Origin: Bilabrum cf. latius | Taxonomy: Eukaryota | Direction of reading: 5' to 3' | Assembly (NCBI GenBank): GCA_965178125.1 | Contig: OZ237768.1 | Span: 310,001 to 374,000, forward strand | DNA: 64,000 nt | Shown: positions 41 through 64,000 of the stretch, one piece after another | Position numbering within the stretch: position 1 is the first letter of the stretch | Layout: every line of letters starts with the position of its first letter | Notes under the pieces: generated by a model | Seen by the model: only the letters and a program-made list of their open reading frames with translations | Database searches by the model: none | Told to the model about the DNA's origin: nothing | Program-made: the position numbers and the translations under genes

Positions 41-2547
41 TCACGGTCGGCACCCGTTCGTGTTGCCTTCCTCCACGACCTCCCAGTCCTGCGCATCCTT
101 GGAGGAGAAATCGGTCAGCGACTGCCCCTGCGCCCCCTCCGAGCACATGGTGTTGCCGAGCAGCTTGTTGTGGACGGGGGTGCAGTACTTGTCGTCCAGC
201 ACTCCGGAGAGGAAGGGGAATGATTCTCTCCACGCGGGCTTGCTCGCTTGCTCTGCGAGGGTCTGGTTGTCCTCCCCGTGGCAGCTCGACTTCTGCCAGC
301 CGAGCCCTCGGTCATCAATGTGAATCGCGACCGCCTTGGTGCGATTGAGGGCGAAATAGTTGCCTTTCACTGTGGTATTGCGGCCACCGCCGATGAACAC
401 GCCCTTGTTGCAATCGATAAACGTGTTGTTTTCGATCGTCCACCAAGACATCTCGCTGCGAAAGGGGGATAGGCGGGGGGGAGGAGAGGGGGGGTTGGAA
501 TAGATGGGGAGAGGGGGGGGGCTAGTCGGGGGTCAATGACAGGGTCGGGGGTCTTCGACATCATACCATACCAGCAACCAGGATGAAAGCAAGGCAAAAT
601 GTACATTGAGTGGAGTTCAACCTTGCGCCATTCGCACTACGACAAAATTGTACCGATCCATGACAAACAAAGGATGCAACCCCCCGTTGTCTCACTCGTC
701 CAGGTAGATGGCCTGCACCGACGGATAGCCGAGGGCCACCGGCTCCGTGTTGTAGATCCTGCGGAACGTGTTACCTACAAGGCTCGAGTTGGGGTTAATG
801 AACGCCTCGCCCTTCTATCCACAGGTGTAGAACGCGCCTGAGTCCGACACTTCCCAGCTTACTGCGAGGGTAGGAAGGCAAGCTAAAGGCACGGGATCTA
901 GGAGAGGTTGTCCGTCGAGCAGCACTGGGCAAGCAGTTCGATGGTGCAGTAGTCAGCAACAGCACAACAACAGGCAGATTAACACACTTTGTAGGACCGA
1001 TGCCCGCCGTCCAATGAAGCTGCTCTCATGACCGAATGAAACAGCTGTCTCTCACGGTCTTCGATCAGGTTGCCCCGTACCACTGCGCTCACCCCAGGGA
1101 TTTCGTTCCCACCTCCCAGGATGCCCTGATGCGGCCCGTTGAACACATGGTTGTTCTCCAAAGTGACACCTACCCCGCCCCAGTGGATCCCAGGCATGTA
1201 GGTCCGCTTCCATCGGCCCATTTGGTGCGCGCTCGTGTTACGCACCACGATGCCAGACGGCGTCAGCGTGTCGAAGTCGGCTGCGGGCCCGGACACCGCC
1301 ACTGCGCTGCAGCCGACCCCGTACGCTTCCGATGAGTCCACGACGGTGCCCCGAGACCCCTCGATGGAGATTCCTTTGCGACCGTGCAGGGAGGCCACCA
1401 CGTTCTTCACACCGATGTTGGTGCAGTTGCCTTCCGTGCAGTTGACGCCGGATCCCATGGAGGACTCGAGCACGAGGCCATCGAACTGCACGTTGCTGGT
1501 GCCGGGACCCAGCTCAAACACATTCGCAGATACGCCAAAATATGCGCCATCGTTCATCGTGCGGCCGCTCACGCCCCGACGCCCGGCGAGCTTGGGAGCA
1601 GCTGCTCGCTGCTCCTCCGAGTTGCCGTCGAACCGCTCCAAATCGGACTGGGAGGGAGGGTAGAAGTACAGCGTGAGATCCGGGTCGGCTGTGTCGACGT
1701 ACCATTCCCCTGGGGCGTCGAGCTCCGACAGGAGGTTGATCCCGATGAAGCGAGCATTCTTTTTCCAGGCGGCCGGCCTCGTGCTGCTCGAGATGTTGAC
1801 GAGCGCTCCGCCGCTAGGAAGCGGCGAGATCGCGGAAATCTGCTCGTACTCGTCCGCCCAATCTACATGAACGTAGCCGTGGATCCAGGGGTCGTTTTCT
1901 TTTGCCCAGTTCAACGGACGGCTGTCGGTCGTGTTGAACCACGCAGACGTGCCGCCATCAGCGTGCGAGAACATCCAGGAGCCGTTCGCGGCAATGTTGG
2001 GGTACCGCGCCAGGGGCACCCAGGCAGAATTGTACGACAGGATTGCCTTGTTGTGCTGGCAGTCGTGGAGGCTGCCCGACAGGAAGTAGCCCACCTGAGT
2101 CTTGGACACACCAAGCTTGGCGAGAGAGGTGCACTTCGTCTCCGCGGGAAGCTTCAATCCCGCGTGATGCAACGCATCGTTTTGCAAAGCATGGCTTGCG
2201 CAGCTGCCCCAAGCAGATGCGGGGATCGGGACACCACCCGATACTTTGGTCGGGCCTTGCGCGTCGACAGCCTTGAAGACCACTGGACTCTCAGACGAAG
2301 CTCCCGAGTCCTGCTCGGTCAGCTGGATCGGAGTTTCACCAACGTATACACCAGGAAATATATGCACTACAGCGCCGCCGTTTGGAAGGGGGCGCTTGCT
2401 GCGCAAAATGTCCCTAGCCTTCGTGATGGATCGCACTGCTGCAGCAGGCGATGTGCCCGGATTTGAGTCGCTTCCGTTCGTGGCGACGTACAAGTCAAGC
2501 TACGCAAATGCCACAGAAATCAGGATCGATGCGAGAATAAGCCTCAT
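41..2547 (-). CDS. Secreted right-handed parallel beta-helix protein (GH141-like / pectin-lyase fold); exons 2547-1056, 861-696, 455-41
   Basis: ATG 2547 gives signal peptide MRLILASILISVAFA-[TAG]-LDLYVATNGSDSNPG. Motifs LARYPN, GYVHVDWAD, NLLSELDAPGEWY, DSGAFYTCG[TAG]KG, AIYLDD. GT..AG introns 862-1055 and 456-695 keep frame. TAGs at 2500-2502 and 815-817; TGA at 41-43. Confidence 0.8.
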
Positions 2548-2698
2548 GGCTAGAGACGGGAAGAATTCTGAATTGAAGTCGGCTTGGATCGAATTCTACA
2601 GTGTGACGAATGTGACGGCGACCGCGGCATTTGGGGTTTGAGTTGCACCATACACCGTGGCACACAGGCGCTTGCCATGGCGCGCATAATTTGCGTAC

Positions 2699-5467: not shown

Positions 5468-5761
5468 GTCGGATGCCGCGAATCGATTGCTGCAACGAAG
5501 GGAGTGTGCAGTTGATTGCGTGCTGGCAACGGTGGAAAGCAAGGTGGCCCGAATGTATACAATGCAATATAACTCACGACGATCGAGCCAAGTGGCGCAA
5601 GATTCGAGACTTTTGCAGCACACTTGTCTTGGGTCGCACCGCGGATCCGGTGCGCTGGCGGTCGCAACCACTTCGCCGAGTGGCGCCGCGCACTTGCCAT
5701 ATACGAACGAGGATTACAAAAGGCATCAAGTTGCCTCCTTCGTTTCTACTGAGCTAACCAT

Positions 5762-8700
5762 ATGAACATATTTTCCGATGTTCCCCGCCGCATCGAGGTT
5801 GAGATTCGATTGTTGGACATTGGGGAGGTATCTCCAGGCGGTTCCGCAGGAATGCAATGTGGCGGTGATGCCCCGACTGCTTGGCCTTGGAAGGCCGACT
5901 GGCTCGATGATGAGTCAAATACTCAGTTTCACGCGACTGGCTTGCACGGAGAAGTGCGATCAGAGACAATTTCCCTGGATGGTGTCTGCACCGGCCTCAC
6001 ACTGAAGGCGAGGATTCTCGATGTGTTTGATATCGCTATTCCAAAGCAAAAACTGTACTTTCGAGGAGCTGAAGTGTCAAATTCTGCTATTTTGTACGAT
6101 ATTGGCGTTGAATCGAAAGGGTCTACCGTATTTCTCACGGTGTCTGGCTCTTACCCGAGGGCTGGTGGTGCGAAGCAAGCCGCAAGCAGCAGCGGTGGCT
6201 CGAAGAGCAGCGTCTCTGCAGCAGCCCAGGCTCAAAGTTCAATTGATTTAACAACAGTAGCCCCATACATTCGCCCGTACTCTGGCTTTGGCTATTGGAA
6301 CCGCTCCCTTTTGATTTCTTTAGAGCAAGCACGCCTAGGCATGCGCGCCGGCAAGCTCCCCACCGCGGCGGGAGACGGCACATCCGGTACGTATTTCCTG
6401 CGATCTGAACGTGGAAATCCAGTAGGTTGCTTTAAACCAAGGGACGAGGAACCGCACGCCCCGAACAACCCCCACAAGATGTACGGCCAGCTTGGACAGG
6501 AAGGGCTCAAGGCGGGTGTGTCGAGCGGGGAGGCCTGGAAGAGGGAAGTGGCGGCCTATCTGCTGGACCGAGGATTCGCCGGTGTACCACCTACGGCCCC
6601 GGTCGAGTCAAGGCATGCGAAGTACTTCAACGGAGAGCCCACCGAGCCAGACGAGGACGGGGAGCACGGGGGTGCGGGGCCCGCTGGTGCCGGTGGGGGC
6701 GAATCAGCGGATGATGAGGAGGACGTGGACGTAGAGGCGGGAGAAATCGGAGCCATGACAGGCGACTGGTTCTTTGAATCGAAAGGAGAGGGTCGCCCTC
6801 ATAAGAAAGTGGGGAGCTTTCAGCTATTCGCTCGCAGCGATGGGCCCAGGGACAGCTTCAAGCCGAGAACTCTGCATCCCGACAGCATTGAGGCTCTGGC
6901 TCTGCTCGACATGCGGCTGGTGAACACGGATAGAAACAGTCAGAACGCCCTCGTGAAGCGCCGCCAGAAAGAGGTGATCAGATACGAGACGAAGCACAGA
7001 TTCGAAGACAAGCTGAAGCCTGGGGAGACCATCATCGAGGCAGTAGATGACGGCACGACCGCTGCCGAGGGTGTCACACCCAAGCCCAAGAAAGCAAAGT
7101 ATGTCCCCGGCGGGAAATGGACAAGGCTTCGCAAGGAACGGGAGGCCAAAGCAGCGGCAGAGAAGGCCAAGGCAGCAGGTGGTGGTGCTGGTGGCGGATC
7201 TGCATCTGGCGCTGCCTCCGAACGAGTACCAGCAGTAGCAGCAACAACCGCAGCATCTGCATCGGCAATGGCTGCACCCAAATCTGCAGAGCCTAAACTT
7301 GATACAAAGCCCAAACCCAAGCCGAGACTCGTGAAGGTTCGCTCCCCCGTCATAGAGCACGAGGATCTGCCTTCCGCTCTGATTCCAAGTGAGATTGCCC
7401 TGCCATGCACTGAATTTGTCGTTGCATGGGCTCAATCGATCCGTCAACTGCACGTTACATACCCTTAGTGTGTGTCCGTTGCAATCCACGCGTTTCGGTA
7501 TGTCCACCTCTTATCTCATGCCATACCTCGCAGTTGACCACGGCAGCTGCCTTCCTAGCCAGCTCATGCTCGACACGCTCTCTGCCGACTGGCTCCTATG
7601 GCCCCAGGCCAAGCGCCCGCTCAGCGACAGAGCCAAGACCTACCTGCAGGACTGCGAGGATCGACTCGAGGAGGACTGCAGCATGCTGCAGACTCAGCTA
7701 GGCATAGATCCCGAGGCCGTGCTTCTGTTCCGATGGGTCAATACGCTCATTTGCAGGGCAGCCAGGACCATCCCCAATGTGTCTCCTTATTGGATCGCCA
7801 CTGCCATCTACAGGCACAAGCAGAGCGACCCTGAGACACCCTCTCGGCTTGAAGTGTCCCTGCAGCAGGCCACAGCCATGGCACTCACCAAAGCGAACGA
7901 CCTGCTATTGGCAGACCCAGGCACTGTGTCTGCGTCCGGCCACAGCAGCAGCGAGTGGTCGAGTGCTTCGGATTCATCAGCTTCGTCATCTTCCGTGACT
8001 TCACCGGGCGCTAGCCCTGCAGAGCGACAGGGGGATGGCTCGGTGCGCCAGGTAGGCAGGGGCAGCGCGGCATCATCCCGCGAGGCACCTGCCGGCATGA
8101 AGCACGCTCGTTTCGTGAAGGCAGCCACCGCGGTCTCGGATTCAAAAGTGCGGAAGGTAGTCACTCTGGACCCGAGGATACCAAGCAGAACTTCGGGTGA
8201 CGGTAACACGCCAAGCAGTAGTGGTAGTCATCAGGAAGGGAGACGAAGCAGTGGTGCAACGCCGCCCATAGAGTATCAGAAAGCTGTGATGCCTCCTTAG
8301 TCTTCCCCGTCAGAAAGCAAGCCTGATCTAAGCAGCAACGGTACCCACTTGCTTGGCGCAACGCCGCAGCAGTCTGGCTTTGCCTCAGTGGCTGAGCCTC
8401 CCCTCGAAGACCAGCGATTGCCTTCGGCCGATAGCACGCAAGCAATGGCACGACACCTGCCAAATGGGTTCAGCACGCGAGCGGCCTCTCGGAAAGCACT
8501 CCCGACTGATCCTCACTTGCCTCAGGTAGCTGATGATAGTCTTTTGTCAGGCCGAAGCTCCTCAGACGGCCCACCCGCTGGCACCCATCACCAGGCGCAG
8601 GGTAGCATAACGCTGTCCAGGGCCCATTCCGCGTATGGATCGACTTCTGCGGGATAGCCTCCGGCACGCGCGACGCATCCACAGCGCAACGATCCCTCGT

Positions 8701-20203: not shown

Positions 20204-20444
20204 TGGTGAGGAACATGATCGGGGTGCACCACCTGGCCTTCGTGAAGCTGGAGGGGGCGCGGGGGTGATGGTGAGGAACATGATCGGGGTGCACCACCTG
20301 GCCTTCGTGAAGCTGGAGGGGGCGAGGGGGTGATGGTGAGGAACATGATCGGGGTGCACCACCTGGCCTTCGTGAAGCTGGAGGGGGCGCGGGGGTGATG
20401 GTGAGGAACATGATCGGGGTGCACCACCTGGCCTTCGTGAAGCT
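20138..20444 (+). repeat. 65-bp tandem repeat, ~4.7 copies, derived from the 3' end of copy C
   Basis: Units start at 20138, 20203, 20268, 20333 and 20398 (ATGGTGAGGAACATGATCGGGGTGCACC...). One site alternates A/C between successive units. Confidence 0.95.
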
Positions 20445-20537
20445 ATAGCAACAGGAAGTGGAGCCGGAGGTGGACTGACAACGCACCTTGCAGTGCATAG
20501 GCATATATCAGATACGTCAACTATTTTTTTTCTTAAA

Positions 20538-21438
20538 TCAAGAGCAGCACCCGCCGCTTGGCTTCGTGCCATCATCGTCGTCATCATCCACCTCTACAAA
20601 ATCTTCACCCCTCTCGCCTTCCCTCCCCACGTTATTTATGATCAGTTTAGCCAACTCTCGAAACGCCTCGGTGACTCCCTCGCCCGTCTTGGCCGATGTC
20701 TCCGCCACGACAAGCCCACCCTCCCGTTTCTCCAGGGCCTTTTTGACCTGCTCCACCAGGACTTTTCGGCTGTCGTCCGCCTCCTTCCTGCTCCGCGCGT
20801 CCATTCGGTCCAGGATGTCTGTCTTGTTTCCGATTAGCACGATCTGAGCGTCTTCGTCAGCCAAGCTGTGTATCGTTCTAACGTACTCATCGAGCACTTT
20901 CTGCAGCGTGGACATATCGGTGACGTCGTACACGAGGATGATTCCTTTCCTGCCGCGGATGTGGCTCTTTGTGATAGAAGCAAATCGCTCCTAGCCCGCA
21001 GTGTCGAACACGTTCAACCGGATATTGCAGCCATCCACCTGCGAGCCGAAACACTAGGCAGCATTGGCCGCGACGAACAGATCGATGCCATTCGCTTCGC
21101 AAGACGCAGCTTTGCAGCCAACATAGATGCTCTCACTTCGTCTGTAATACTAACTAGGTCCACACCGATCGTGGCACGATACCCTGGCCCGAAACGCTCT
21201 CCAGCGTATCCATGAACTAGTGTTGTCTTACCAACACCAGCGTCTCCGAGCTGCAACGGTGCGCATGAGTTCGATGAGCAGGATAAGAAATACGTGTAGC
21301 GCGCTCTTCGACCAACGATGAACAAGAAATGAATGATACAGTGCGCCAGCGAGTAGACCTTACTGTGCACGCCGTAGTCGACAGGTCGTCCTCAATGTCC
21401 CCTATTCCTCCATAAGCGCCTGAATGGGCACCTGCCAT
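20538..21438 (-). CDS. Rab-family small GTPase; exons 21438-21364 (tentative), 21250-21137, 21038-20538
   Basis: GDAGVGKT, ATIGVD, FDTAG[TAG]ERF, VYDVT, GNKTD, ETSAKTG and C-terminal CCS prenylation motif; TGA stop. GT..AG introns 21251-21363 and 21039-21136. Confidence 0.92.
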
Positions 21439-21630
21439 ACAATTGTTACGCAGCGAGTGACTTTGTCTGGCCGCAGATGTATTGGCTTAGTGTTTGACCA
21501 GATCCATCCACGAATGTTGCGTTCTGCCAATTCTTTGATATCATCTTCATATTTGGATGTTTGGTTACAACCGCTTTCGAATCGGTTGGACGCGAGCAAC
21601 TTCTCGGGACACCCAACACGTTTCTGGCTG

Positions 21631-25731: not shown

Positions 25732-26402
25732 TAACGATAAACGATGGCAGAGGACGTAGATCTATGCAGACCGTATAATTCATTTAATGTGTGTTTTTCT
25801 TTCTGCACCTAGTGTTCATCTTGGATTCAAAAAATCGTGACCCACAGATCCTGGATGGACTGATGAACACGCGCCGACCCGTATCGGCAATGCTATTCGG
25901 CATCCCATTAAAATCAGCTCTAGTCGTGCACCTCGAGCGGGCACGGGTATACTGCGCCCAACACGCGAATTCAAACTTCGAGAGCGTGTTGGCTTCACCA
26001 ACGATTTTGCACGAGTGCGGTCAGCCTCCACCTCCGAGTCATTGGACCGGTTGAGGTTCAGGCTGCTGCCGCCGGCGGTGGCATCAATCAGGCACTAAGA
26101 TCCTTACGACGCATTGCACGCAGCACCCTGACCAGACAGTCACACATATGAGACAATTGGTTCCTTCAAGTGCAAACCACAACGTTGGCATATGTAGGAT
26201 CTCGCGTGCACTACCCCTTGGCACTCGATTGCCGCTCATCATCAATTCTGACAGGATTACTTACTCGAGTCAAAGATGCGATCCGATCCTGGCGTTTTGT
26301 CCTCCCTGACCGCACATGCGCTACAAGTGGGCCTGAGTACTGGAGGGTAAACAGTGCTAAGCACCAATGCACGATCCGATGTGTGGATACCGTATCATCA
26401 GA

Positions 26403-40809: not shown

Positions 40810-40855
40810 TCTGATGATATCTTGTGAAACGTGTGCTGTTGTTCTGATCCGCACC

Positions 40856-43209: not shown

Positions 43210-46200
43210 ATGTCTGCCATCACTGCCTTGGACGTAACGTTTGGAGAATCATTCAAGTCGGGAGCTTTCACACGAAAGCAGGACCGCTCTGTGAATGGGG
43301 CAGGTGGTAGTGGCGCTTCCTGGCTTTGGCTCGGTAAACACACTTTAGACGCCGAAATCGTTGAAATGCGCTTACTATCAGGTGACGAAGCTTGCCCGAC
43401 GGGCTGGGAGAAGGTGCGGAGAGAAGTGTCACACAAAACTGGCGAAGGTGCGAACGTGTTCATCGCTTTCAGACGAAAATCAATTGGCGAAGTTGCACAA
43501 CCAATTGTCGATGTTGCTGTCCTTCATGTTGGTGAAGATTCTGTGCCCTGTGAGACTATTGGTTTCGTGAACGGAATGTTCGATTTCCTCACCGATTCGT
43601 GGATATTTACGTATTGCCAGGATCGCATTCAAATGAGCACTTGTGCGGAAAATGTCTTCCGTTTGTCCTCTGCCTTTTCCATTTCTCACACTCAGATGGC
43701 TACACTGTCCTAGAGCACCACACCAGCCCGGTAGGATCCCCCGTGACGGTTCGGCTCGCAGTTCGCCATCGCAAGGCGGGCGACTGGTCCTACTAGTCTC
43801 CGGGAGATATGCTATAGGTGGGAGACCGCTGCGACGTGCGCTATGAAGGGGCGTGGTTCAAGGGGCACGTGACCATGTTGACCGGTATTCATGTGTTTGT
43901 CAAGAGGTGCGGATACGAAATGGACGGAGAGATCAAGCTCCTAAAGCAATCAGATGGACTGGCCGCTTTCGGCACCCACACGGAGTGCGGTACCTCCGAG
44001 AGTCGTAGGATGAACCCCGCCTTGGTTGGTCCAGGCGAGACATTCGAGATCAATGCTGAGACACTAGTCGCGATGCAAACTGAAATCGACGCGATCATCC
44101 GCGGTACAATGACCCTTGAAGCTGCTTACGATGTCGTCGAGCAGCACCTTGCTCCGTGTCTAGAACAGGCGCTCTCGGCCGACATAGCAGATGCGGAAGA
44201 TGAGAGCATCTACACGTTCACGCAGTCCGTCTTGCGTTTGTGCGTGTACTTCATGTGCAGGCCGGAGCCTCTGCATCCCGCCGTCCGGCAACAGCTGGTG
44301 CGTGTATTTCTTGGTGATCAAAAGTGCTCGCTGTACTTTCGCCGCAGGAGGAACGGGATCTTTGGGACGGCCCCGGGGGCGGACCGCTTCATCGGTGAGA
44401 CGGCTAGGTTTCCCGCAAGTGGAGCCTGCAAATACTTCGTGGGAAACGTGAACTACTTCGCCAAGATCGGGGGATACGAGGTGCTGGCTCGCCGGCTCGA
44501 CAGCTGCGGTAGCTTCCAGGTACCGATCAAGGAGCTCAAGGAGATTGTGCAGCACGTGATCAAGACGCCATTCCGCATGTTTACGGAGAGGTTTGCCAGG
44601 GACATGTTTCCGAGGCTGTACATCGCCGTGCTGAACCGGTTGCTGAGGATGAGCAGCAACGAGCTCCAGGTCTATCCAAGGGACGTGACAAGCAAAGAGG
44701 TGCAACAAATCATGACTAACGTATACGAGGCCATTTAGCTCCCGCCTGCCCGCGTACCCGGCAATCCTGGTTTCCACGGGTACGGGGAGGTGCTGCCCAT
44801 CCCATATGACGAGATGATGGAGACGTGGGACGCGAGGATGTCTCTGCGGCAGCTGCGGGCAGAGCCAAGATCGATCCGGATCTAGGGGATGATGTACCTC
44901 GTTGATATGGTGCAACAGACCAGGCGCAGGGAGGGGCGACTCGTCAATTTCGTGCTCGTGGACAACTAGCCTGTGAGGCTTCCCGAGTCGAAATACTGGA
45001 CGGGTTCCACCCTCGCCCAATGGATCAAAGAGGCCGGCGTGGTCTAGGCGCTGCTCGGTGCTGCAGAGGACGGTGACCTCTCGGGTGTGGTCAGGCGCAG
45101 GGCCACTCCCGATGCGGACGAACCTGATCGTCCGCTGCGAGCATGCGTCACTTTGGTAGACCCCAAGGCAGCCAAGTTCATGGCTGGGGAGGAAGAGGCC
45201 GCCCGGGCCGCCAGTGAGCACAGAACATTTGAAGAGGATGGGCCCGCATCGGGTGCTGGCGCAGGCTGGCCTGATGTGTCTGTGCACCAAGCAGTCTCGG
45301 GTCCGGCCACCGCACAGCCCCAGTGTTTTGCTGCTGGAGGAAGGCCTGGGCGCTTCAACTCAACGTATGCAGGTGTATTGGCTCATATGCCCGAAGTGCT
45401 TACGCTGCTAACAGAGGAGAAGCAGTTGGGCCCAGATCCCAATGCCGCAGACGATGCTCTCAGCAGAGCCTTTCAATCGGTCTGGCGCTCAGGAGAGGTC
45501 GGCCCAAAGGTGCCCTACGGGGGTCATGCACCGATGCAGGAAAAGCCCGATGCAGGGCAGCTGGCACCCGTGAATCACTTGGGCCGCTCAGCAACAGACC
45601 AAGGTAGCACCACAGCTGTAGTCGATGAGGCAGACACGGATGACGATGACGACCGTCGGCCCGCCCGGCTGGGCATCATGATATGCGGTGCATCCGAGTC
45701 CAGCAGCAGCGAATGGATCCTATGGTCGGACGGCACGACATTCCTGCACGACATCAGTGAAAAAGGACTGGTTACAGCGGTACCGCCGCGCCTTCGCCCG
45801 ATGCTGCAGTGGAGGAGGGCAGTGGAGGCCAAGAGGGACGCTGGGATGGTGTTCCAGGCGGCGAGTGAGGGCAGGCCACTGGAGCTGGGCAAGCGAGTGC
45901 GACTGGGTAAACTTGCTGGTGGGTTAACATCCATGGGAGCGATCGAGGTGCTGCCAGGGAGCAAAGTGGCCAGAGCGGTTGAGTTGATGACCGGTGGTCG
46001 AGCTGCTGATCAGGCCGCGCAGCTAACAACATTGCGTTGCACTCCGCTAGTCGCTGCGATGCTTCACGAGCATCATGAATGCGTCAAGGTGCTTGCAAAG
46101 GTGCTCCGAAGCTCGTGGGTATCAGAGCAACAGCTCGCAGCCAGGGCAGGCCCGAGCTCCGGAGGGCCCCCGATCGCGTCTGCAGCGGGCGAGGCAGCTG

Positions 46201-46442
46201 GCCCGCCGGCTGGCGGCTCAGCAGAGGATCCCACTGCTGGTGCTGGCCTTGGCCGGGGCCGAGTTGCCGCTGCCAGCGGTGCCGGCTGGATCGCGGAGCA
46301 TTCAGAGCTTATCAAGATCATCGGGCACCCTGAGACGCGGGTTGAGGTCAGCATTTTGGATCTTGTGAGGCTCTTGAGCGAGGCAGGGATGGACAGCGTG
46401 ACGCTCCAGGGAGCACTTGACGGTAACAAGCGGGATGATTGA
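43210..46442 (+). CDS. MABP-like + Tudor/Agenet-like + USP9X/24/34-N-terminal-like helical region + ankyrin-like motif; exons 43210-43549, 43696-46442
   Basis: ITALDV..CPTGWEKV..VFIAFRR..PIVDVAVL..P(Y)GYTVLE fits an MABP pattern. L[TAG]VGDRCDVRYEGAWFKGHV; YFVGNVNYFAKIGGYEVLARRL; RI[TAG]GMMYL; WIKEAGVV[TAG]ALLG; TPLVAAMLHEHHECVKVL. Six TAGs; TGA at 46440. Domain names are by recall. Confidence 0.7.
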
Positions 46443-47707
46443 TAGGCGATGTGGATACTGGCCCGATAGAACATGTCTAAGGCAGCATTGCGGCAGCCTC
46501 AGAATCAGTATTCGAACTTATTGCTCGGGCTCATGTGCACGGGGACGGGATTCGACGCGTGCGGTCCGTTCGCTTCCAGGTGCGTCACCTGGTCCTCGAT
46601 GAGAGCGAGCAGGGGTGACACCACGACCGAGCACCCGGCCCGCACGTTCGCCACGCGAGTCTAGTTTGGGAACGTCCCGACGTCGGGCCAGGTGCTTTGC
46701 GAACTGCGGGCACGATCGAAGAGCAAACACGGCTGGACGACTCGCATGGCACATCAGTCTACTGGGCATTTTTGTCCATATCTACTACTAGTAGTAACTT
46801 GCGGGGCTGAGCGCTGCATCTGCATGGTGTGGAATTGTAGTTCGTCTACTTTGCAGTATGCAACCAAGAGGACCATACCGCTGTAAACTGGATGCTCTGT
46901 CCATTTGTATAAAAGGCGGTAACCTGAAGTGCAAGTTACAACACCCAAGAGCAAGAAGGCAGAAAAAAGAGTGACGGCAAGGTGACGACCAACACGAGAA
47001 TTATTCATGGTACAATGTCCATAAACGCTAGCAGTACGATGATATAGAATTAAATTTTATATGTACACGTAGGACCACAGCCGGCATGTACTCGCCATTG
47101 TCAGTCTAGACCACAAAGCAAGAATCGCATCGAAACTATGTAACGTGCACCTATTGTACAAACTGCAAAAAATCGGTCCATCGATCCGTTTCGCTGTCAA
47201 ACAGTCGTATCTGCCAGTATCTTCGTGCACTGACAGAGTCCCAACGTCTTATCTGGGTGCTACAGGTCAGCAAGCTTCCTATAGTCTTGGTAGATACTGT
47301 TGTGTCGCAGGCAGATTCCATCCTGATCGTCGGGCCATTGCAGTTCAGCTGTGGCGAATACATTAGCCTATATTTGTGATTATACCATCCAAAAATGGCA
47401 GGTGGTGAGATATTACTGATGATTTCGACTTGGTCCAGGGAGCCTTTTCCAAGGAGCTTCCCGTGCGTATTTCGGAATTTGGCCTGTATCATTATCAAGA
47501 CATATGGCTTTCAAGCCCGTGCAAGCTGCACGTTTGCCCCCTTCATGGATAAAACACTCATTCAGAGTTATACCTTTCCAGCCTTCTCTTGGATGCGACA
47601 TGCGAGCATGACTGGCTGCAGTGCCGGTTGTCGGTCACGTCCCAGTCCATTCCTCGTTCGGATCGGCCGCCAAGATCGAGCCGGCGCACCGTTTGGTCCA
47701 GTCAAGC

Positions 47708-49880
47708 ATGCGTTACGTGTTTGACTCTGCCTAACCCTTTCCCCAACTCGCTCACTCGTGGAATCGCCGCAGCTGCCGGAGATGGTGACGACCCGTTGTC
47801 GCTGTTTGCAGAGGAGATGCAAAGCGAAGAGCCAGAAATTCGAATCGCCGCTATGAAGAAGCTAAGGAACGTTGCATTGGCTATTGGAAAGGCAAGCACG
47901 CAGACAAAATTGGTTCCATTGCTAGGAAGTGAGAGGGGACGTTGATGATCAGTTGCTTGAATTCCTTCCCCACCCATTCACGGGAGCAGCATTGCGAAGC
48001 CAAAGCGTTATTTTCATCTCCCCGGGCCCCGCCCCACTACCCCCTTATCCCCTCCGATTCTCCGCCGCCCCTCACCTTCATCCCCCCCCTTCGTTCAACC
48101 CCTATCCGCAGAGCACGTCGAAGACGATGACGAGGTGCTGCTGGTCATGGCAGAGCAGTTGGGAGACTGCGTGGACGTGCTGGGCTCGCCGGACGCCGTT
48201 GACCTGGTGGAGGTGCTCGGGCTGCTGGCCACCACCGAGGAAACGGTGGTCAGGGAGGCCGCGGTGACTTCCATCAACAAGGTGGTGGCGGTACTCCCCG
48301 CCGACACGGTGGCCTCCAAGGTGGTGGGGGTGGTGGAGAGGCTCACGAAAGGGGACTGGTTCACGGCGAGGGTGTCCGCTTGCGGGCTGTTCGCGGGGGC
48401 GTACGAACGGCTTGGTGCCGGGAGTGCCTAGGAGCGGACCCACCTGCGGAAGCTGTTCGCGGCGCTGTGCAACGACGACACTCCGATGGTACGGAGGGCA
48501 GCCTCGAAGTCCATCGGGGCTCTGGTGCGGGCCACCGAGGCGAGCGTGGCCGAGGCAGAACTGATCCCCTTGTTCAACACTCTGGCGGGCGACGACCAAG
48601 ACAGCGTGAGGCTGCTGGCTATCGGCAACTGCGCCGCGTTCGCCGAGGTTCTCTCCGAGTCGAAGAACAAGGAGCTGATCCTGCCCCTGGCAGTGGCATG
48701 CGCAGAGGACAAGTCGTGGAGGGTGAGGAACAACGTGGCCAAGGACTTCCACAAGCTGGCACGGGCCATCGGCCGTGAGACCACGCTCGCCAAGCTGGTG
48801 GCGGGCTTCGTGCGGCTCCTTCAGGACCCAGAGGCCGAGGTGCGCGCCTCTGCCGCCAAAAACGCGCACGAGTTCTGCGAGGTCATAGGCCCGGACGCCT
48901 TCGTGCAGAGCATCGTGCCGTGCCTGAGCGATCTGTCAGCTGACGTGGCGCAGAGCGTCAGGGTGTGCCTTGCGGGGTCACTCGTGGGAGCGATTGAGAA
49001 GCTGTCCGAGGCGGACGCGACCAAGCACTTGCTCCCGCTGGTGCTGCACTTCTTCAGACCCGATGAGGCCGCCCAGGTCAGGGTGAAGGTGCTCGCCTCA
49101 CTCGACGTGGTGGCTCGCGCCGTAGGCAAGGAGACGCTCAAAGCCAAGGTGCTGGAGCACCTCATCACGCTCAAGCAGGACTCCCAGTGGAGGGTCCGCT
49201 CCACTGTCATTGACCAGACTCCGCTCATCGCCAAACTGCTGGGCGCCGATGTGTTCTCCAAGCACCTGCTTGAGGTGGTCACGGACGGTTTCTCGGACCA
49301 TGTCCACTCCGTGCGGTTCGCCGCCAGCAGGTGCCTCAAGCCCCTGGCCGAGGGACTCGGAGCCGAATGGGCGGGCAGCGTGATGGTGCCCAAGCTGCAG
49401 GAGCTCTACAGGAGCGGCGAGTCGTTCATGCAGAGGATCACCGTGGTGCACGGGGCCGTGTTCCTCGCCCACGGGTGCAAGGGTTCGGCGGCCGCGGAGG
49501 CCTGCGCTGACCTGGTGGTGAGGGCAACCAGTGATGCAGTGCCGAACGTTCGTTTCGTGGGCGCGAGGGCCGCTGAGAGCGTGGCCGCGGCCGTGCCCAA
49601 GGCGACCCTCGACGGGAAGCTGGTGCCCGCCCTGAGCGGCATGGCCGAGGACCGTGACTCTGACGTCAGGCACTACAGCAAGCGAGCCCTCGAGAATGTT
49701 GGGTCGGGGCTCGCGGGCAGCTTCTCGCCAAGCAGCCTGTACGCCGGGAAGAACTACAAGGACGGGTCCGAGCTCGGAGGGGCCGGGTTGCTGGCTGGGG
49801 TCCGCGGCGCGCCGGGGGCCGATGAGGACGAGGAGGATGTGGGCGGGGGCGCTTCCGCCGCGGGCGGGGCGGGCAAGTGA
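47708..49880 (+). CDS. PPP2R1A: Protein phosphatase 2A scaffold subunit A (HEAT repeats); intron 47929-48111, possible micro-exon start 47708-47711 with intron 47712-47772
   Basis: DDDEVLLVMAEQLG, EETVVREAAV, DWFTARVSACGLF, DDTPMVRRAA, DDQDSVRLLA, EDKSWRVR, DPEAEVR, WRVR, DAVPNVRF. One TAG at 48429; TGA stop. Start codon uncertain. Confidence 0.93.
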
Positions 49881-50044: not shown

Positions 50045-51000
50045 TCACCTGCCGGTCTAGTTGGAGAGCACCGCATGCAAAGAGGGCTCTTTCGCTCCCT
50101 GATCGGTCCGGGGCAGTCCATCGGCGCCTGCCATCGACATGCCCCCAGTAGCTGAAGCTGCACTACTCATACTAGCCGAGCCCTTGTCTTCGCCCTTGCT
50201 TTTCTTCTCGCCCTCTCCCCCTCCCTCGCCCTCTCCCCCCGTCCACCCGAACGCCATGGCTGCTGCCTCGGCAGACTGCATCTGCGCCTGCATGGCGCCT
50301 TGCCGGAGGAACCCTTGGGAGCCCAGGGGGTGCTCCCTTCGCGTGTCTCGCAGGCTGTCCAGTGCTGCCTCGGCTTTGGCCAGCCGCTCCCTGTGCGTGT
50401 CTGCTTTGCGCTGCAATGGGACGATCAGCCGGTTCGTGTGCCGGATCTGCTCCTGGATCACGGGAGGGGCTTCCAAGCGGGCATCCAGCTCCACCAGGAT
50501 GCCCAGGCCGATGGCAACGACTACTTTTGACGTATCCACGATGGCGTGCTGCCGCTCCCCGTGCTCGCCCACCTCTGCCAACGTCTCTGCCGGTCGGCCG
50601 AGCTCATTCGGAAGCACGTGGATGGCATCGAGCTCGTCCTTCGTTGCCTTGAAGGGGACACCGCCGGCTGTGGCAGAGTCAAGGCGCCGTACATTTGTAC
50701 CAAGAGGTTTGCCGTCCTCTGCTGATCGAATCGACTCGAGACGGCTGAGCAGCTTCTAGTACTCGTCTCGCCTTCTAACATAGCCCTCTACAACCTTCTC
50801 GGACTGCTCAAAGGCCGGCTGCGATGAACTAGTACCCACATACACCCACCAAATACTTTACAAATGCTTCGGTCGTTCTTTTGGTGCAAGCAGATCAAGA
50901 GCAACAACTATTTGTTCACCTTTATCTTTGTCGCGACAATGTGCTCAAATTTTGCTATTTGGGCCTCAAGCTCTGCCTCTGGGAGCTCTTCGCTGTCCAT
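50045..51000 (-). CDS. UXT: UXT-like alpha-prefoldin subunit; exons 51000-50920, 50818-50045
   Basis: IAKFEHIVATKIK|PAFE and DTSKVVVAIGLGILVEL resemble UXT (RYETFISDVLQRDL, DTSRIYVALGYGFFLEL). TAGs at 50756 and 50057; TGA at 50045. Confidence 0.72.
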
Positions 51001-51164
51001 ATGATTCTATTTTAATGGATAAGAACGCCGGTAGCCTACATAGGCTTGCTCTGAGGAAGCTGGTTGATTTCGAAGACCATGGCATCATGACGAGTGCCTT
51101 TTTTCCCCTGCGAATTGCGTGCACCGTAGCTTCCGAGAATATTTCGTGCCTGTAGCTTGTTAAT

Positions 51165-53099
51165 ATGTCTAGACCGAAGGTGTTCATGGACGTGACAATG
51201 TCGGGGGTCCCGCTGGGACGCATGGTATTCGAGCTCTTCAGCGACTTGGCACCAAGAACCTGCGAGAACTTTAGATGCTTGTGCACTGGCGAGCGCGGCA
51301 CTGCAGAAACAGGGGAAAAGAAACTATCCTTTCTGCGGAGCTGCTTCCATAGGATCATTGCTGGCTTTATGGCTCAGGGTGGCGATTTCACGAACGGCGA
51401 CGGAACGGGAGGCGTGAGCATCTACGGCGATCGATTCGAAGATGAACCATTTGATGCAAAGCATTCCTAGGCCGGGATGCTTTCAATGGCAAACATGGGA
51501 CCAGACACCAACGGATCACAGTTTTTCATCACATTTCGCGCCACTCCGCACCTGGACGGCAAGCACGTTGTGTTCGGCAAGCTTGTGGAAGGCTTCGGGG
51601 TGCTGAAGGCCTTGGAGACGGTGCAAACGGGCGAAGGTAATCGACCGATAGACCCCGTGGAGATTGCCGCGTGCGGACAGGTGGGCGGCAGGATGGCAGG
51701 CTAGACGTCCACTAGCTCGGTAGCGGTAGCCGGAGCAGGCGCCGCCGGGCAGGGCCCCGCAGGTGGTGGCGACATCCCGGGCGCCGCCCCGCTCACCTTG
51801 GACGCCCTGCCCAAGCGATTCGGCAGGCGAAGGGAGCGAGACGAAGAGGCGGGTGGGGCCACCGGCGTAGTGGACGAGCGAGCCGTGCAGCGGCTGCAGA
51901 CGGGTGCACCACTGCCAGCGGCAGGAGCCGGAGCCGGAGCCGGAGCAGGAGTGGGAGTGGGAAGCGCCGAGGGGCCGGGGGCCGCTGGCAGGCTAGCTGA
52001 AGGGGCCCTCGAACATACCCTGCGGGAGGGGCTGGCCCGGCGCAGGGCACAGGAGGCTGCGAGGAGGAGGGAGGCTCTCGCGGCGGCGGGGCTCGGTGAG
52101 GAGAGGGCTGGTGGAGGGGCAGGTGTGACGAGTGATGGTGTGACGAGTGGTAGTGCAGTCGGTATTGCAGACAGTGAGGTTAGTGCTGGCCAGGGCCAGG
52201 GGCTCAAGCCGGAGACAGGGGAATAGCCCGGGGCTGGCGCGGTGCCGAGCAATCCCTACTTGGCGCATTCAGCCCAGAGCGATGCAACATCGCTAGGCGA
52301 GCTAGGCCAGCCCCCTTCAAATCCATCAAAGCCGAAGAGCAAGAAGAAGCAGGTAATGGAGGCTCGTTTGGCCGCCATCAAGCGACAGATAGGTGCGGGA
52401 CGCAAGGCCAACATCAAGGCAGTGCGGCAGGAAGCGAGGGTGGTAGTGGGGGGAGGGGGGAGAGCAGGAGGTCAAACTGGCCGGGGTGGCCAAACCGGCG
52501 GTGACGATGGCCCCGACGCTGGCGCCCAGCTCCCCAGCGGGTTGAAGCACCTGGGTGAGACGGCCGCGGCCTCAAGGGCAGAGGGTGAGAGGCACAGGGC
52601 GAAGAAGAGGAGGAGGGAGGAGTCGTACGGATGGAACCAGCTGAACAGCGATTTTGCCGCGTCTCAGTACGAGAAGAGGCTGGCCAAGGTGACGGGGGGT
52701 AGGGCGAGGCCAGGCGAGGGTGTGGCGGCGGGGGCAGTGGAAACATCCGACGCTCTCGTGGCGTCGGCGGCGAGCGGCGGGGAGGTTGCAACCGGTGGTG
52801 CTTCTTCATCTTCATCTTCATCTTCATCTTCATCTTCATCTTCCTCAGGGTCCGCGATGGCTGGCGCTGGAGGGTCGAGCGATTTCGCGGATGCGTCCGG
52901 CCTCGATGCTCTGGCTGCGTCCTTGCGGCCTTCGGGGGCAGCCGCCTAGAAGCGCAAGAGGAGGAGGGCGGATCGACCCGACGAGGTGGTGGACTACATC
53001 AACGAGAAGAACAGGCTTTACAACAAGAGGATCGAGAAGTCGTTCGGGAAGTACACGGCTGAAACCAAGGCATCGCTCGAGAGGGGCACGGCGCTGTGA
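51165..53099 (+). CDS. Cyclophilin-type PPIase fused to a C-terminal SYF2 splicing-factor domain (644 aa)
   Basis: [33 protein letters not shown][TAG][26 protein letters not shown]-terminal YGWNQLN..YEKR and [32 protein letters not shown]. TAGs at 51468, 51702, 52224, 52947; TGA at 53097. Confidence 0.9.
52802..52843 (+). repeat. (TCTTCA)n coding microsatellite (poly-Ser)
   Basis: Direct repeat within the cyclophilin-SYF2 linker. Confidence 0.85.
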
Positions 53100-59010: not shown

Positions 59011-59410
59011 ATGCTCAATAGGGTGTGCCAAGTGGGGTTCAGTCACATCCACCAGAGTCGACAAGAGAGTCAACATGCCGTGCAACCGCAACGGGGTGCC
59101 ATAAGCCACAGGATCCTTTTATTGGATGACGTGGGGGTTGACGAGGACCCCGCGCCACCCGCCGCAGACAACGCGGCGCCGAGGTACCGCAGGATCATAT
59201 TGGGTTTGTTGGGAGTCGCGCACCGTGGGCCCATAGATCGCTGAAGGTACCCCATGCAGAATAACCAAGGTGGCGCAAACACAGCGGTCACGGGCCAAGG
59301 AAGCTTGACCGCGTGCGTTACTCGCCCTTTCTCCCACTTCCTCCCACCCTCGACTGCTTCGCTTAGGCTACAGGCCTTCAACTTGCACATCGCATACCAG
59401 CTGGGGGCAC

Positions 59411-62095
59411 TTATTTGTCCTCCTAATCTTCATCCTGCTCGGAATCAGCCCCGCTGCTGTAATCGTGGCCAGAACTCGTAGCAACGCCACGGCCTGCGGC
59501 TCCTTCGTCCCGATCACCGGTTGCTGCTATATCTGCGGCTGCAGAAGCCGCACCCATGGAGCGAGGCGGCTCCTCACTGCGCTCACCTTCGTGATCACCA
59601 GGCTCTCCGTGATCACCAGGCTCTCCGTGATCACCAGGCTCTCCGTGATCACCAGGCTCTCCGTGATCACCAGGCTCTCCGTGATCACTGTGATCGCTGT
59701 GATCGGCGGCGAAACCATGGCCAGGAAGACTGGTGATGCTCTGTGGCGTACTAGATGGTGGGGCAGATTGTGAAGACTCAGAACGCTGACGCCGCGCAAC
59801 AGTTGGCTGCCTTGGAACTCGAGCCCCGCCAAAAGGTACGTAGCGTACCCCTGCATGATCTCCCGGGTCGTCAGCTACTACACTCGGTGCTGCTAGGCGA
59901 GGCAGCTGCATCTGACTTGCCGCATCCGACGCTTCGCCCCCAGCTTCTCGCCAAGAATCGATAGATGTCTGTGCACTGTGTGATGCTTGCTCACCAACTC
60001 TAGCTGTAACCCCGAATCCACTCACTTGCGATCGTGTCGTGCTTCGGATAGTAGCCGCCCGGCGCCCTGATACCTCGGATCGAGTGCTTCCAGCTGTCCC
60101 CGATCCGGATGCTGTGGAAGCTGTTTGGCGGTCGTTCTGACGTGTGGCGGCTCGTACAAGGTTACGGCCCTCGGTTGGATCAAAGCTGGGTAACCAGTCT
60201 GCAGCGTTGGATTGGTATTGCCTATCTTGCCTTCGTCGCCTCTCCCTCGAGGTCAGGCCGGTTCCAAGTGGCTGCATGGCTCCACTTGTCCGGCCCATCG
60301 GCGCCCGATGTGAATCTTCAGATACCGGCCACTAGACAGAAGACTCTCCCGATGATGGCACCGGTCTTCTAGCAGTACGATGGGCACTGTCGTCGGTAGC
60401 TCCTTCTGATAGTATGCTACTTCCCTAAAATCCTTGTGCACCAGGACGGGATTCATCCGGGTCAGGGTAGCCGTCCGTGTAAGCGATGCTACCCCGCGGA
60501 GCACGATCAGAAAGGGGCGGAGTCTTAGGCCTGTGGCTGTGATGGACCGCCGCCGATAAACCTAGCTGACGCCGAGGTCTACTAGCATGACCACTTTTCT
60601 ATTGACTTCCATCGTCCACTGTGTGCCCAATTCTGTCAGAATCCGTTGTTTCCGCCTCTCTGCCGGAGCTTGTTCCATCTTCTGAATCACGAGCCACTGT
60701 GTGCCCAATTCTGTCAGAATCCGTTGTTTCCGCCTCTCTGCCGGAGCTTGTTCCATCTTCTGAATCACGAGCCACTGTGTGCCCAATTCTGTCAGAATCC
60801 GTTGTTTCCGCCTCTCTGCCGGAGCTTGTTCCATCTTCTGAATCACGAGCCTCCCCCGAATTCGACGGTAAAGAAGATTCGTCGCTCTAACCAAGTGCTT
60901 TGCTTATAGCAGCTCGCTTTTCCGCGCTGCCGTGTCGCCGTTGGTCTCGCCGTTGGTCTCCCCCTAGCCCAATTTCGGGATCTTCGTCCAGGCTGCTGGA
61001 GAGCTGGTTCCCCAGTGGCTAGTTTGGCCAGGTCCCATATCCACCACTTTGTATGCTTGCTCCAGCACTACCTCTATTGAGTAGCGGGGCTCTGTCTCTG
61101 TTGTTACCATCACATCCTGCCCCTCGCCCGCAGCAGCAGCACAGCGATTGCCAAGGAAATAGGAGGGCCGCATTAACCACCAGCAAGATGACATGAATGC
61201 CGCCAGATCCTCGCATGAACAGCAACATATTAATGTACTGCTTCAGTGGCATTGATGCGTTCGCAATCATGAATCCCCACTGGTCCTCGTCCATGTGCTC
61301 CCACATGAGGTGTGGCGACGAGGTGACCACATGATGCAAAACCCGGAAAGACATGACCACCGAAGCAAGGCAGCATGCCGCACCAACGAGTGAAATGATA
61401 GAAAATGATACACTGAAAGAAAAGCTTGGTCTCTTGCGTGAACCAGAGCACCAGAGCACGACCCACGGAAGCAACTAGAATACTCCGAATCCCAGAGTGA
61501 AGACAGCCTGAAGCATCCCCCAGAACGAAAGCCTGATAAACCAGCTTCTTGTCTCCCTCCAAACATCCAGCTTTGAAGCTTCTATGTTTCTGCAAGCATC
61601 GATCCTGTGGTAATGGAGATCAAAGCGCCCCTCGTAGATCCAGTAGTTCAGTTTGTGGGAAATTGCTACGCTACGGTTATCAGCCTATGGCACTGGCGGT
61701 CGCCAAACTGATATATTTCCCATTGAAAGTTTCCAAAGGTCTACTTGGCCGTTCGTGACATCCCATGCATGCTAGGCCAATGGCATGGTGTTTGCGTTAA
61801 TGATTTGCTCCGCATCCTTGTCGGGATCTGACTTCGCAATTCCATCCGCGTATTTCAAACCATTATCCAGCCTTTCGACGAGATTAATATCCCAGCGAAT
61901 ATATTCCGTCGGCAGCTTCTCAACAAGCTATCTTCGCACACCGACGATGCAGCTTGGGTCCGGCAGCGCCGCTTTGGTCTGTGCAAACTTTGTTCGGACA
62001 TTAGCATACTGGAAAAGTCCAATGGTTACATTCGGGATACTGAGCATCATGTATATTACAGATACCATACAAGCAAGTGCATATTGGGCCTTCAT
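59411..62095 (-). CDS. Predicted four-TM membrane protein with large first loop and long repetitive tail (~894 aa)
   Basis: ORFs 61928-62200, 61019-61474 and 59423-60298 lie in one frame, open throughout except about 10 TAGs. TM-like segments YALACMVSVIYMMLSIPNVTIGLF, FWGMLQAVFTLGFGVF[TAG]LLPWVVLWC, FSIISLVGAACCLASVVM, IHVILLVVNAALLFPW. TAA at 59411. Confidence 0.7.
59590..59690 (-). repeat. 18-bp coding tandem repeat (DHGEPG)x5
   Basis: CGTGATCACCAGGCTCTC repeated. Confidence 0.92.
60616..60850 (-). repeat. 78-bp perfect coding tandem repeat x3 (ARDSEDGTSSGREAETTDSDRIGHTV)
   Basis: CCACTGTGTGCCCAATTCTG...GAATCACGAG three times. Confidence 0.95.
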
Positions 62096-62199
62096 TTCAC
62101 CGAAGATATGCCCACACTTGCGACGCCGCGGACAATCTCTATTTTCCAATTTTTGTAAACCACACACAACTTTTAATTCGTGCTTATCGAATGTGGACA

Positions 62200-64000
62200 A
62201 GTCGGGTACGCAGACGACTACGTGGCACTGACGTCGAACTGGAACGAAGCAGTGGCGGTCATGAAGCTAGTCAAGAGCCTGTTTGCACTTGCGGGCATGT
62301 AGCTGGGAATCAAGCCCCTGACAGCATCGGGCCAGGGAACCAAGACAGCGATCATGGCCTTTGGCTACGCTCGGGACTCAATTCCTGGGGACATGCCAGA
62401 GGGCGTCGCATGCAGAGCAGCGGACGCGGGAGAGACGGATGGGGAGTGGACCATCCCACTTGCCTCATCCTACCTGTACCTCGGTCTACTCATTTCGACC
62501 CAACCAGTACGGATCAGCCCAGATGAAGTAGCTGGGCTGACGCAGGCGAGAGACATCTGGGTAATTGATATGGCACCCCACGTACGCAGGAGGATTGCGA
62601 TGGCGTACCGGGCGGCCAGGGACATCACACGAGCGGCGGTGAACGGCAACTGGGCGGTCTCCCTGCACGCCCAGCTGCTCCATGCAGGAGCAATCACGAG
62701 TGCATTCTACGGAGCAGAGGCAGCGGCATGTGCAACAGGATGGGACACCTTGTCAGGATTAGGATATGGTTCCCAAGTTTTCTACGGGATGGAACTGAAC
62801 CTGGAAGTCCTCAAGATGCTGGACAAATTCCTGCTGGATACGCGCTGGATGATTGTCAGCGGATCGACACAGGTAAGGCCCTTCACCATGGGCGGTCGAT
62901 ACGTGCCAAACCTTGCGATGGACACTGAGCTGCTGACGGCATCGGCAGCAGGGCGTGTTGCTATGGGCCTGCTGGACCTGATCGAGTGTCCCTCGAAGAA
63001 GGGCCTTGATGTTGCGGCCAGGTTCATCCACCAGGGCCGATTCCTGCAGGGACCACCAGTACAGACAGGCCCACTCGGGGCCGCGCTGGCACTGGGATTC
63101 AGGATCAAGATGGCAGGGTGGACCCACCGGATCGATGACGCGAAGGACTGGCTGGGATGCCAGGAGACTGCAAAAAAAGTCACAAAGTGGAGGAAATCCA
63201 AATCCGGAGCTGCTGACCGATCGTTCACAAGCCTGAGCCTGGGATGCTCGCACGATCCGGCACTGTCGGATTGGGACCGGGAGAGAGCTGCGCTCGGAGT
63301 GGTCATGCTTAACCGGTACGCAACGAAGGGACGGTATGCCTTCGGACCAGGAGCCATGCCAACAGCAGCGGTGGTGCAGGAATACGGCCACCAAGGAAGA
63401 CGAATTCTGCGCATCCGAGCTGGACAATACCCGCAACAGGGCACGCCCAACCTTCAAGTGATGGGCACCGCGGTAGAGCAGATGGAGCGGGCCGAGCATG
63501 ACCATCATGCCGGAACGAGACCGTGGCAACCCGATGATGCGGATCAGAATAGAGGGAGGTCCCCTGCCTCCCTCCGGAAAGCATGGGCGAAGACAGCTCT
63601 CGCTCAGGACCCTTGGGACGAGAAGCTGGAGCGCACCAGCAGGGCCAAGCCAATCGTCGAAGACGCACTCACTCGGATAGAGCGTACGATTGCGCGGTCA
63701 TCGGAACGGACAGCTGTCAAGGAGCTGGCCAACCGAGTGGTGCAGGTGATCAGGAACCAGCTGCGCTAGCAGGAGTAGCTGACGTGCAGGCAGTGGATGC
63801 GAGGCGATGCGGCGGCTGCTCTTGCCGCCACGGCCACGCAAGAGCTGATAGCGGCAACCAATGCGAACGCTCGGCTACAGCGACGGATGTTTAAGCCCCA
63901 CGGCTTGCTAAGGGACATAGAGAGGCAATGGGCCAAAGGCATGAGCGCGTGCATGCTAGCCTCTCTGAAGGATCGTGAGACGCAGAGACGGTCATGGAGG
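62200..64000 (+). mobile_element. 5'-truncated non-LTR (LINE-like) retrotransposon: C-terminal part of reverse transcriptase and downstream ORF, running off the window
   Basis: GYADDYVAL at 62204; AGM[TAG]LGIK..TKTAIM; YLYLGLLI (RT subdomains 5-7); thumb-like AFYGAE. An in-frame TAA at 62174 precedes it and RT subdomains 1-4 are missing. Open to 64000 except TAGs at 62300, 63767, 63776. Confidence 0.75.

Follow-up and report, generated by a model that had tools for sequence, protein, structure and literature searches.

Evidence for UAG as a sense codon, most likely with the meaning glutamine, in the nuclear DNA of a stramenopile-like protist

The reassignment of stop codons in nuclear genomes is documented in several forms. 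In NCBI translation table 6 both UAA and UAG are read as glutamine (Gln), and this code is used by many ciliates, Hexamita, ulvophytes, Streblomastix and Amoeboaphelidium. According to the passages of PMC11687900 available to us, nuclear code changes outside the ciliates are few, and nuclear genomes in which UAA and UAG differ in meaning are rare. The same passages list UAG alone as Gln in Iotanema spirale, Protocruzia tuzeti and two phyllopharyngean ciliate lineages, UAG as leucine (Leu) in a rhizarian and a phyllopharyngean, UAG as serine (Ser) in Scotinosphaera and UAG as glutamic acid (Glu) in an oligohymenophorean (PMC11687900). Here we analyze the genetic code of a 64-kb stretch of DNA, referred to throughout as the window, together with two metagenome contigs (L001 and L002) and contigs from sequencing runs. 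With good confidence, we interpret the window as nuclear DNA of a heterotrophic-stramenopile-like protist in which UAG has changed genome-wide from stop to sense, most likely with the meaning Gln, in which UGA is the terminator and UAA does not stand for an amino acid.

A preliminary description of this DNA had reported about 90 in-frame TAG codons over 18 reading frames, and our count came close to it, with 95 TAG per 18,128 codons in 18 frames. These frames run from stop to stop and are bounded by TGA or TAA. They are therefore free of internal TGA and TAA by construction, and the real test lies in the asymmetry among the three stops. Counted from the first ATG of each frame, TAG occurred 85 times in 17,004 codons (5.0 per 1000), compared with an expectation from base composition by codon position of 210, while TAA and TGA were both at 0 compared with expectations of 94 and 101. 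Some of the 95 TAG sit in 5′ leaders or in antisense stretches, so that the number within true coding sequence is somewhat lower; in frame 50103-53099, for example, two of the seven TAG lie upstream of the cyclophilin start and antisense to the prefoldin gene.

With TAG read as sense, the longest open reading frames (ORFs) in the window reached 2269, 2261, 1640, 1503, 1435 and 1004 amino acids. The longest ORF under the standard code was 992 amino acids, and this was unchanged when TAA alone or TGA alone was read as sense. In 100 second-order Markov random sequences used as a null, the longest ORF with TAG as sense had a mean of 489 amino acids and a maximum of 709, a length exceeded by 13 ORFs in the window. 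No comparable gain was obtained with TAA or TGA as sense, in agreement with the earlier claim that TAG is the only stop to interrupt the gene models. The length of the ORF downstream of a stop had a median of 48 for TAG and 29.5 for TGA, a comparison that is confounded by the long ORFs that G+C-rich DNA contains even where it is non-coding. Coding and non-coding frames could not be told apart by a codon-usage score trained on six ORFs. Gene-specific programmed read-through was considered and rejected, given that all but one of the 18 frames have at least one TAG, with a density of 5 per 1000 codons, and that all four bases follow it (C 37, A 22, G 19 and T 14 times, n = 92).

Conserved protein domains continue across the in-frame TAG codons. 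All of the protein families that had been named in this DNA were recovered by Pfam, namely the PP2A scaffold subunit A (PP2A-A), cyclophilin, SYF2, Rab and a prefoldin/UXT-like protein, and uninterrupted domain alignments across TAG bear out the description of frames that run on in the expected conserved sequence to a TGA or TAA. The cyclophilin core (residues 4-178) aligned end to end with cyclophilins from PDB and was gap-free at TAG. The SYF2 domain sits after four or five TAG of the same frame, and in the alignment it ends where solved SYF2 chains end, at ERGTA(L), directly followed by TGA.

Contigs from sequencing runs were compared with the window. Three segments bounded by GT..AG (47404-47771, 47929-48111 and, on the minus strand, 50819-50919) were missing from contigs of runs X5, X6 and X7, and a fourth (43550-43695) was missing in X5 only; run X1 retained all four. 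Runs X5, X6 and X7 come from two studies, and none of the eight runs found is on record as RNA; the RNA nature of X5-X7 is a guess, X5 being marked ‘probably DNA’. The pattern of missing introns is what mRNA would give, and if the runs are DNA, the intron-less copies still keep TAG. Eleven in-frame TAG lie under the listed X5-X7 contig pieces, and none of them is among the seven places with a differing letter in any run. These include three TAG of the cyclophilin-SYF2 gene, with zero differing letters in X5-X7, while all six TAG of the expressed gene at 43554-46442 lie under X5 pieces, again with zero differing letters. After splicing, the PP2A-A frame reads from its ATG through to its TGA with exactly one TAG, and the three plus-strand introns contain no TAG. 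Contigs of four runs from three studies were concordant at TAG sites. Retention of TAG in mRNA, one of the checks put forward in the preliminary description, is matched by spliced contigs of guessed RNA origin, and its picture of a G+C-rich, intron-containing genome agrees with a G+C content of 56-63% along the window and with GT..AG introns at the spliced-contig joints.

A second species provided a further comparison. On the metagenome contig L001 (59% G+C) there is a PP2A-A gene whose protein is 83% identical to that of the window, and the two genes differ in a manner that indicates purifying selection (236 codons are identical, 259 differ synonymously and 141 nonsynonymously). At the position of a GAG in the window, L001 has an in-frame TAG of its own, at the position of the window's TAG it has GCG, and both genes end in the same TGA. 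A public gene call on this contig (P0001, L001:2722-4719) stops exactly at the in-frame TAG of the L001 PP2A-A gene. In addition, L001:1-1660 is orthologous by tblastx to the end of window frame 21424-25731, and in both species this gene has conserved islands and an identical C-terminus, SSVARRYG followed by TGA, downstream of TAG. Paralogs within the window likewise keep frame and sequence after TAG. Two large orphan gene copies, A and B, have four TAG in common and 1740 identical codons.

These observations bear directly on the alternative that the standard code applies and that the TAG codons are untranslated, whether as assembly errors, in pseudogenes, within small introns, or through mRNA editing to CAG. 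Nothing was found in favor of it, and its sole opening is that the kind of run is off record for X5-X7. Under the standard code, frames interrupted by TAG alone and never by TGA or TAA would not be expected, nor would domain alignments gap-free at TAG, agreement of four runs from three studies at TAG sites, or a second species with TAG at other sites and synonymous change far above nonsynonymous; the introns seen are without TAG and lie elsewhere. Pseudogenes, assembly errors and TAG-bearing introns are excluded by the domains, the spliced contigs, the second species and the paralogs, and we regard a standard code as vanishingly improbable. UAG is supported as a sense codon in this nuclear genome.

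The strongest single site for the identity of the amino acid is in the Rab GTPase, where the relevant TAG is the one in the G3 motif, which reads DTAG-TAG-ERF. The Gln of this motif is an invariant catalytic residue in Rab proteins. Opposite the TAG, Q occurs in two of three printed PDB alignments (Sec4) and L in the third (Rab14), the latter presumably an engineered GTPase-deficient mutant. A membrane domain on the minus strand (61130-62095) has two distant homologs, with E-values of 1.8e-14 and 5.9e-12, the only ones found among 1.84 billion representatives, and at its best-conserved TAG column (SVW..P.PQ.D) both homologs have Q. Where a TAG differs between paralogs in near-identical flanks, the partner codon is CAG in three of four cases and TCG in one: between copies A and B the opposite codon is CAG twice and TCG once, and among three tandem paralogs the TAG of copies 1 and 2 corresponds to a CAG of copy 3, in a C-terminal block that is nearly identical. 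Where paralogs are well aligned, neither TTG nor CTG was opposite a TAG. The residues up to two positions away from TAG best fit the neighbor profile of Gln among the 20 amino acids, although this is a soft measure, with methionine 1.9, Leu 2.7, Glu 8.7 and Ser 13.4 log-likelihood units below it. From these comparisons UAG probably encodes Gln, with Glu the next likeliest. The preliminary description had assigned UAG to Gln throughout the window; its status as a sense codon is well supported, and Gln is its best-supported meaning, on few columns.

Termination was assessed from the ends of the same frames. All four homology-anchored C-termini (SYF2, Rab with GGCCS, PP2A-A and gene 21424-25731) end in TGA. 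Among the 18 frames TGA closes 14 of the 17 that are closed, TAA closes three, and one runs off the window edge. UGA is a terminator. In-frame TAA was absent from the 18,128 codons, compared with about 30 expected from the ratio of CAA to CAG (171:484) if TAA shared the meaning of TAG, and reading through TAA lengthens frames by a chance-sized 0 to 204 codons. UAA is not a sense codon, and it is likely a stop. The TAA frame ends are at 979, 2699-2701 (minus strand) and 59411, and the one at 2699-2701 is part of a GTAAGT that could be a 5′ splice site. In 13 of 17 frames (11 of 15 with paralogs counted once) the terminal stop is followed by T. Several ends are tandem, for example TGATGATGA, TGATAA and TGATAG.

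The organism was placed with PP2A-A. The best named matches were oomycetes, at 40-42% identity, and other matches were P0001 (89%) and P0002-4 (53-54%); the 90%-identity cluster of P0002 contains proteins of Cafeteria roenbergensis. A quick maximum-likelihood tree was built from 46 rows, the window and 45 of 120 hits, with 75 left out; 24 of the hits had a source label (19 organism names) and 21 were unnamed. The window and P0001 grouped together (support of 100 in the Shimodaira-Hasegawa-like approximate likelihood ratio test, SH-aLRT) as sister to P0002-4 (99), and these nested in a clade of unnamed sequences (100) that was sister to oomycetes plus Chattonella, with joint support of 100. The best reading of this tree, from one gene with sparse named sampling, is that the organism would be a stramenopile whose nearest named relative is Cafeteria, in line with the earlier guess of a SAR-like stramenopile. 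The fusion of cyclophilin with SYF2 is also present in Tribonema, brown algae, Lotharella and PDB chain 8xi2_M, Tribonema being the one organism name that the clusters of 20 cyclophilin-SYF2 matches yielded, so that this fusion gave no second marker of the taxon.

Cafeteria roenbergensis/burkhardae (Bicosoecida) shares with the window a PP2A-A protein that is 53% identical, in the clade sister to the window and P0001, and a G+C-rich genome with few introns. In contrast to the window, the PP2A-A protein on record for Cafeteria is complete when read with the standard code. The second metagenome contig, L002 (72% G+C), is Cafeteria-like, and its anoctamin, mitochondrial-carrier, kinase and PP2A-A genes have no TAG in their coding parts. 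In the mitochondrial-carrier frame (L002:3665-5602, minus strand) a TAG comes right after the last carrier repeat, as a normal stop would, and L002 looks standard-coded. As these four genes of L002 have no internal TAG, the change probably postdates the divergence from the Cafeteria lineage, and the recoding may have had an independent origin, judging from this one Cafeteria-like contig.

Several observations weigh against the proposed code or its host, most of them touching the choice of Gln. The remaining TAG columns of the membrane domain hold E in both homologs, W in one homolog, and a gap. The TAG columns of SYF2 hold D or E in homologs, and the cyclophilin TAG column is K in 53, G in 26 and Q in 2 of 120. 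The PP2A-A TAG column is gapped in 110 of 120 homologs, with E in seven of the ten that have a residue, and the L001 TAG column is P in 117 of 120 rows and E (GAG) in the window. Being variable or gapped, the cyclophilin and PP2A-A columns carry no information on the residue. CAG is the commonest single mutation from TAG, so that the paralog partners are weak evidence on meaning; their near-identical flanks reflect recent duplication or conversion, and the synonymy of the TAG/CAG change is therefore not demonstrable. There are not enough informative TAG columns to decide on the amino acid statistically. A genome-wide sense codon for another residue, Glu most readily and then lysine, Ser, Leu or tyrosine, would fit the acidic columns of the membrane domain, SYF2 and PP2A-A and the GAG opposite the L001 TAG, and Ser would fit the TCG partner at one paralog site and the S opposite TAG at one site where gene 21424-25731 is aligned with L001. 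UAG as Glu, Leu or Ser is also on record elsewhere in the available passages of PMC11687900. However, the invariance of Gln in the G3 motif of Rab proteins, the Q shared by both homologs at the best-conserved TAG column, the neighbor profile, with Glu and Ser well below Gln, and the lack of TTG and CTG partners all speak against another residue, and we consider it unlikely.

Other points concern termination, the organism and editing. Ambiguous codons, used both as stop and as sense, occur in Condylostoma, karyorelicts and Blastocrithidia, in those cases involving other codons. A comparable state of UAG, sense within genes and terminator close to the 3′ ends of some, would fit the two of 17 frames that have a TAG four codons before the terminal TGA or TAA, compared with about 0.4 expected, and this slight excess leaves room for some stop use of TAG; no 3′ ends anchored by poly(A) were seen. 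However, none of the four homology-anchored C-termini ends in TAG, and the two late TAG precede A and G, whereas terminal stops mostly precede T, which makes an ambiguous UAG very unlikely in our view. With regard to UAA as a stop, no homology-anchored gene here ends in TAA. The placement of the organism rests on a single gene, and editing of the TAG codons is excluded only as far as the guessed run types of X5-X7 hold, with X5 ‘probably DNA’. A genome-wide change of UAG to a sense codon, most likely for Gln, remains our preferred interpretation of the window.

By comparison with other lineages, the decoder of UAG would be a tRNA-Gln whose anticodon, CUA, is one base away from that of the CUG isoacceptor, and eRF1 would have lost or weakened its recognition of UAG while keeping that of UGA (and UAA). 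The recoding itself may have arisen after the split from the Cafeteria lineage. Neither the window nor L001 or L002 contains a tRNA gene, an Rfam search gave no match in the window, and eRF1 is not among the genes of the window.

The coordinates of genes and frames in the window are collected in Table 1.

Table 1. Genes, frames and in-frame TAG codons in the 64-kb window.
Feature	Coordinates	Strand	Details
PP2A scaffold subunit A gene	47211..49880	+	exons 47211-47403, 47772-47928, 48112-49880
PP2A-A HEAT repeats	47961-49880	+	Pfam HEAT/PPP2R1A
PP2A-A landmarks	ATG 47395; single in-frame TAG 48429-48431; TGA 49878-49880	+	
Cyclophilin (PPIG-like) fused to SYF2	51150..53099	+	Pfam PF00160 1.7e-45, PF08231 1.7e-16
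Cyclophilin-SYF2 in-frame TAG	51468-70, 51702-04, 52224-26, 52947-49	+	
Cyclophilin-SYF2 extra TAG	51153-55	+	provided ATG 51150 is the start
Cyclophilin-SYF2 end		+	ERGTAL then TGA
Rab GTPase main exon	20538..21227	-	Pfam Ras 5.6e-27; ends GGCCS + TGA
Rab TAG	20991-20993	-	occupies Gln of DTAGQE
Rab P-loop exon	starts near 21247	-	different frame
Prefoldin/UXT-like gene	50045..50857	-	Pfam Prefoldin 3.2e-06
Prefoldin/UXT-like intron	50819-50919	-	CT..AC joint in X5, X6, X7
Prefoldin/UXT-like TAG	50756-50758	-	plus one 4 codons before TGA
Expressed gene, no Pfam family	43554..46442	+	six in-frame TAG; ends TGA
Intron of gene 43554..46442	43550-43695	+	exon from 43696; GT..AG joint in X5
Low-complexity protein gene, 1435 codons	21424..25731	+	6 TAG; ends SSVARRYG + TGA
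Orphan gene copy A, 2261 codons	26403..33188	-	7 in-frame TAG; no Pfam family
Orphan gene copy B, 2269 codons	34000..40809	+	10 in-frame TAG; no Pfam family
Three tandem paralogs	12476-14794, 15209-17503, 17945-20203	+	4, 3, 2 TAG; no Pfam family
Membrane-domain protein + repeats	59411..62377	-	domain 61130-62095; 11 TAG, 4 in domain
Kelch-repeat low-complexity frame, 1640 codons	54021..58943	+	16 TAG; weak Pfam Kelch; ends TGA
Ubiquitin-like + type II PI 4-kinase frame	5753..7537	+	Pfam PI3_PI4_kinase 8.2e-11
Beta-helix-like frame	979-3351	-	3 TAG; weak Pfam Beta_helix; ends TAA
Coiled-coil frame	2699-5713	-	5 TAG; ends TAA
Low-complexity frame, 1503 codons	7383..11894	+	7 TAG; ends TGATGATGA

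The two orphan gene copies lie head to head on the arms of a 6.9-kb inverted duplication (26393-33303 and 33885-40819, 93-99% complementary, with a spacer of 581 nucleotides), each encoding a protein of about 2260 amino acids; for the 2261-residue protein no homolog of 1243-3957 amino acids was found. The third tandem paralog has at its 3′ end a tandem repeat (20137-20444) of 4.7 copies of a 65-bp unit, and within the ORF of the membrane-domain protein a second tandem repeat (60616-60851, 3.0 copies of a 78-bp unit) encodes a unit of 26 residues. Inside the expressed gene without a Pfam family, the summed contig depth at 45810-45900 was 339-742, compared with about 10-24 around it, and there were many loose ends there in all four runs, which suggests a short high-copy repeat. 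The PI 4-kinase frame has a single TAG, 23 codons ahead of its TGA, and the prefoldin-like protein had no PDB match at E ≤ 0.01. An open frame at 62177-64000 has three in-frame TAG and encodes a YADD motif like that of reverse transcriptases, and had no Pfam match at E ≤ 0.01; it is probably a retroelement remnant.

In titles, abstract openings and passages from one literature collection, no paper was found to report that UAG has changed its meaning in the nuclear genome of a stramenopile or bicosoecid. A stramenopile review has the phrase in its reference list alone, the portions available of the Cafileria paper discuss only a mitochondrial code, and Streblomastix is the sole mention in those of PMC10120064. 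We judge it evenly balanced whether this is the first nuclear code change in stramenopiles, an independent move of UAG alone to Gln in at least two G+C-rich species related to Cafeteria, with gene ends almost only in UGA. A stramenopile case at about 60% G+C, if true, would be an additional independent origin of the UAG-only code type. It would also test ideas that tie stop-codon capture to base composition and stop usage, the stops here being almost all UGA, and it would allow eRF1 and tRNA-Gln to be contrasted with those of Cafeteria, a relative with the standard code. Standard-code gene callers cut the proteins of this lineage short, as in P0001, and its genes are consequently fragmented in genome and metagenome catalogs.

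Among the known codes, table 6 resembles that of the window in that a UAR stop is read as Gln, with a mutated tRNA-Gln anticodon as the likely route, but the frames of the window are without in-frame TAA. Table 6 was tried as the code of the window and rejected, as reading through TAA adds only chance lengths. Codes in which UAG is Leu, Ser or Glu, as given in the available passages of PMC11687900, share with the window the decoupling of UAG from UAA, whereas the Gln position of the Rab G3 motif and the column with Q in both homologs favor Gln here, and Leu-type partners are lacking. The closest match is NCBI table 15 (TAG = Q), which translates the Rab gene uninterrupted. As far as its lineages are described in the portions of the literature available, they have in common with the window that UAG is sense (here probably Gln), that UAA is not, and that UGA is kept as a stop. 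They differ in that the window organism is placed by the PP2A-A tree among the stramenopiles and not with a ciliate or fornicate, and in its G+C content of about 60%. The code type is one already known, and what makes this case notable is the lineage together with the G+C-rich setting.

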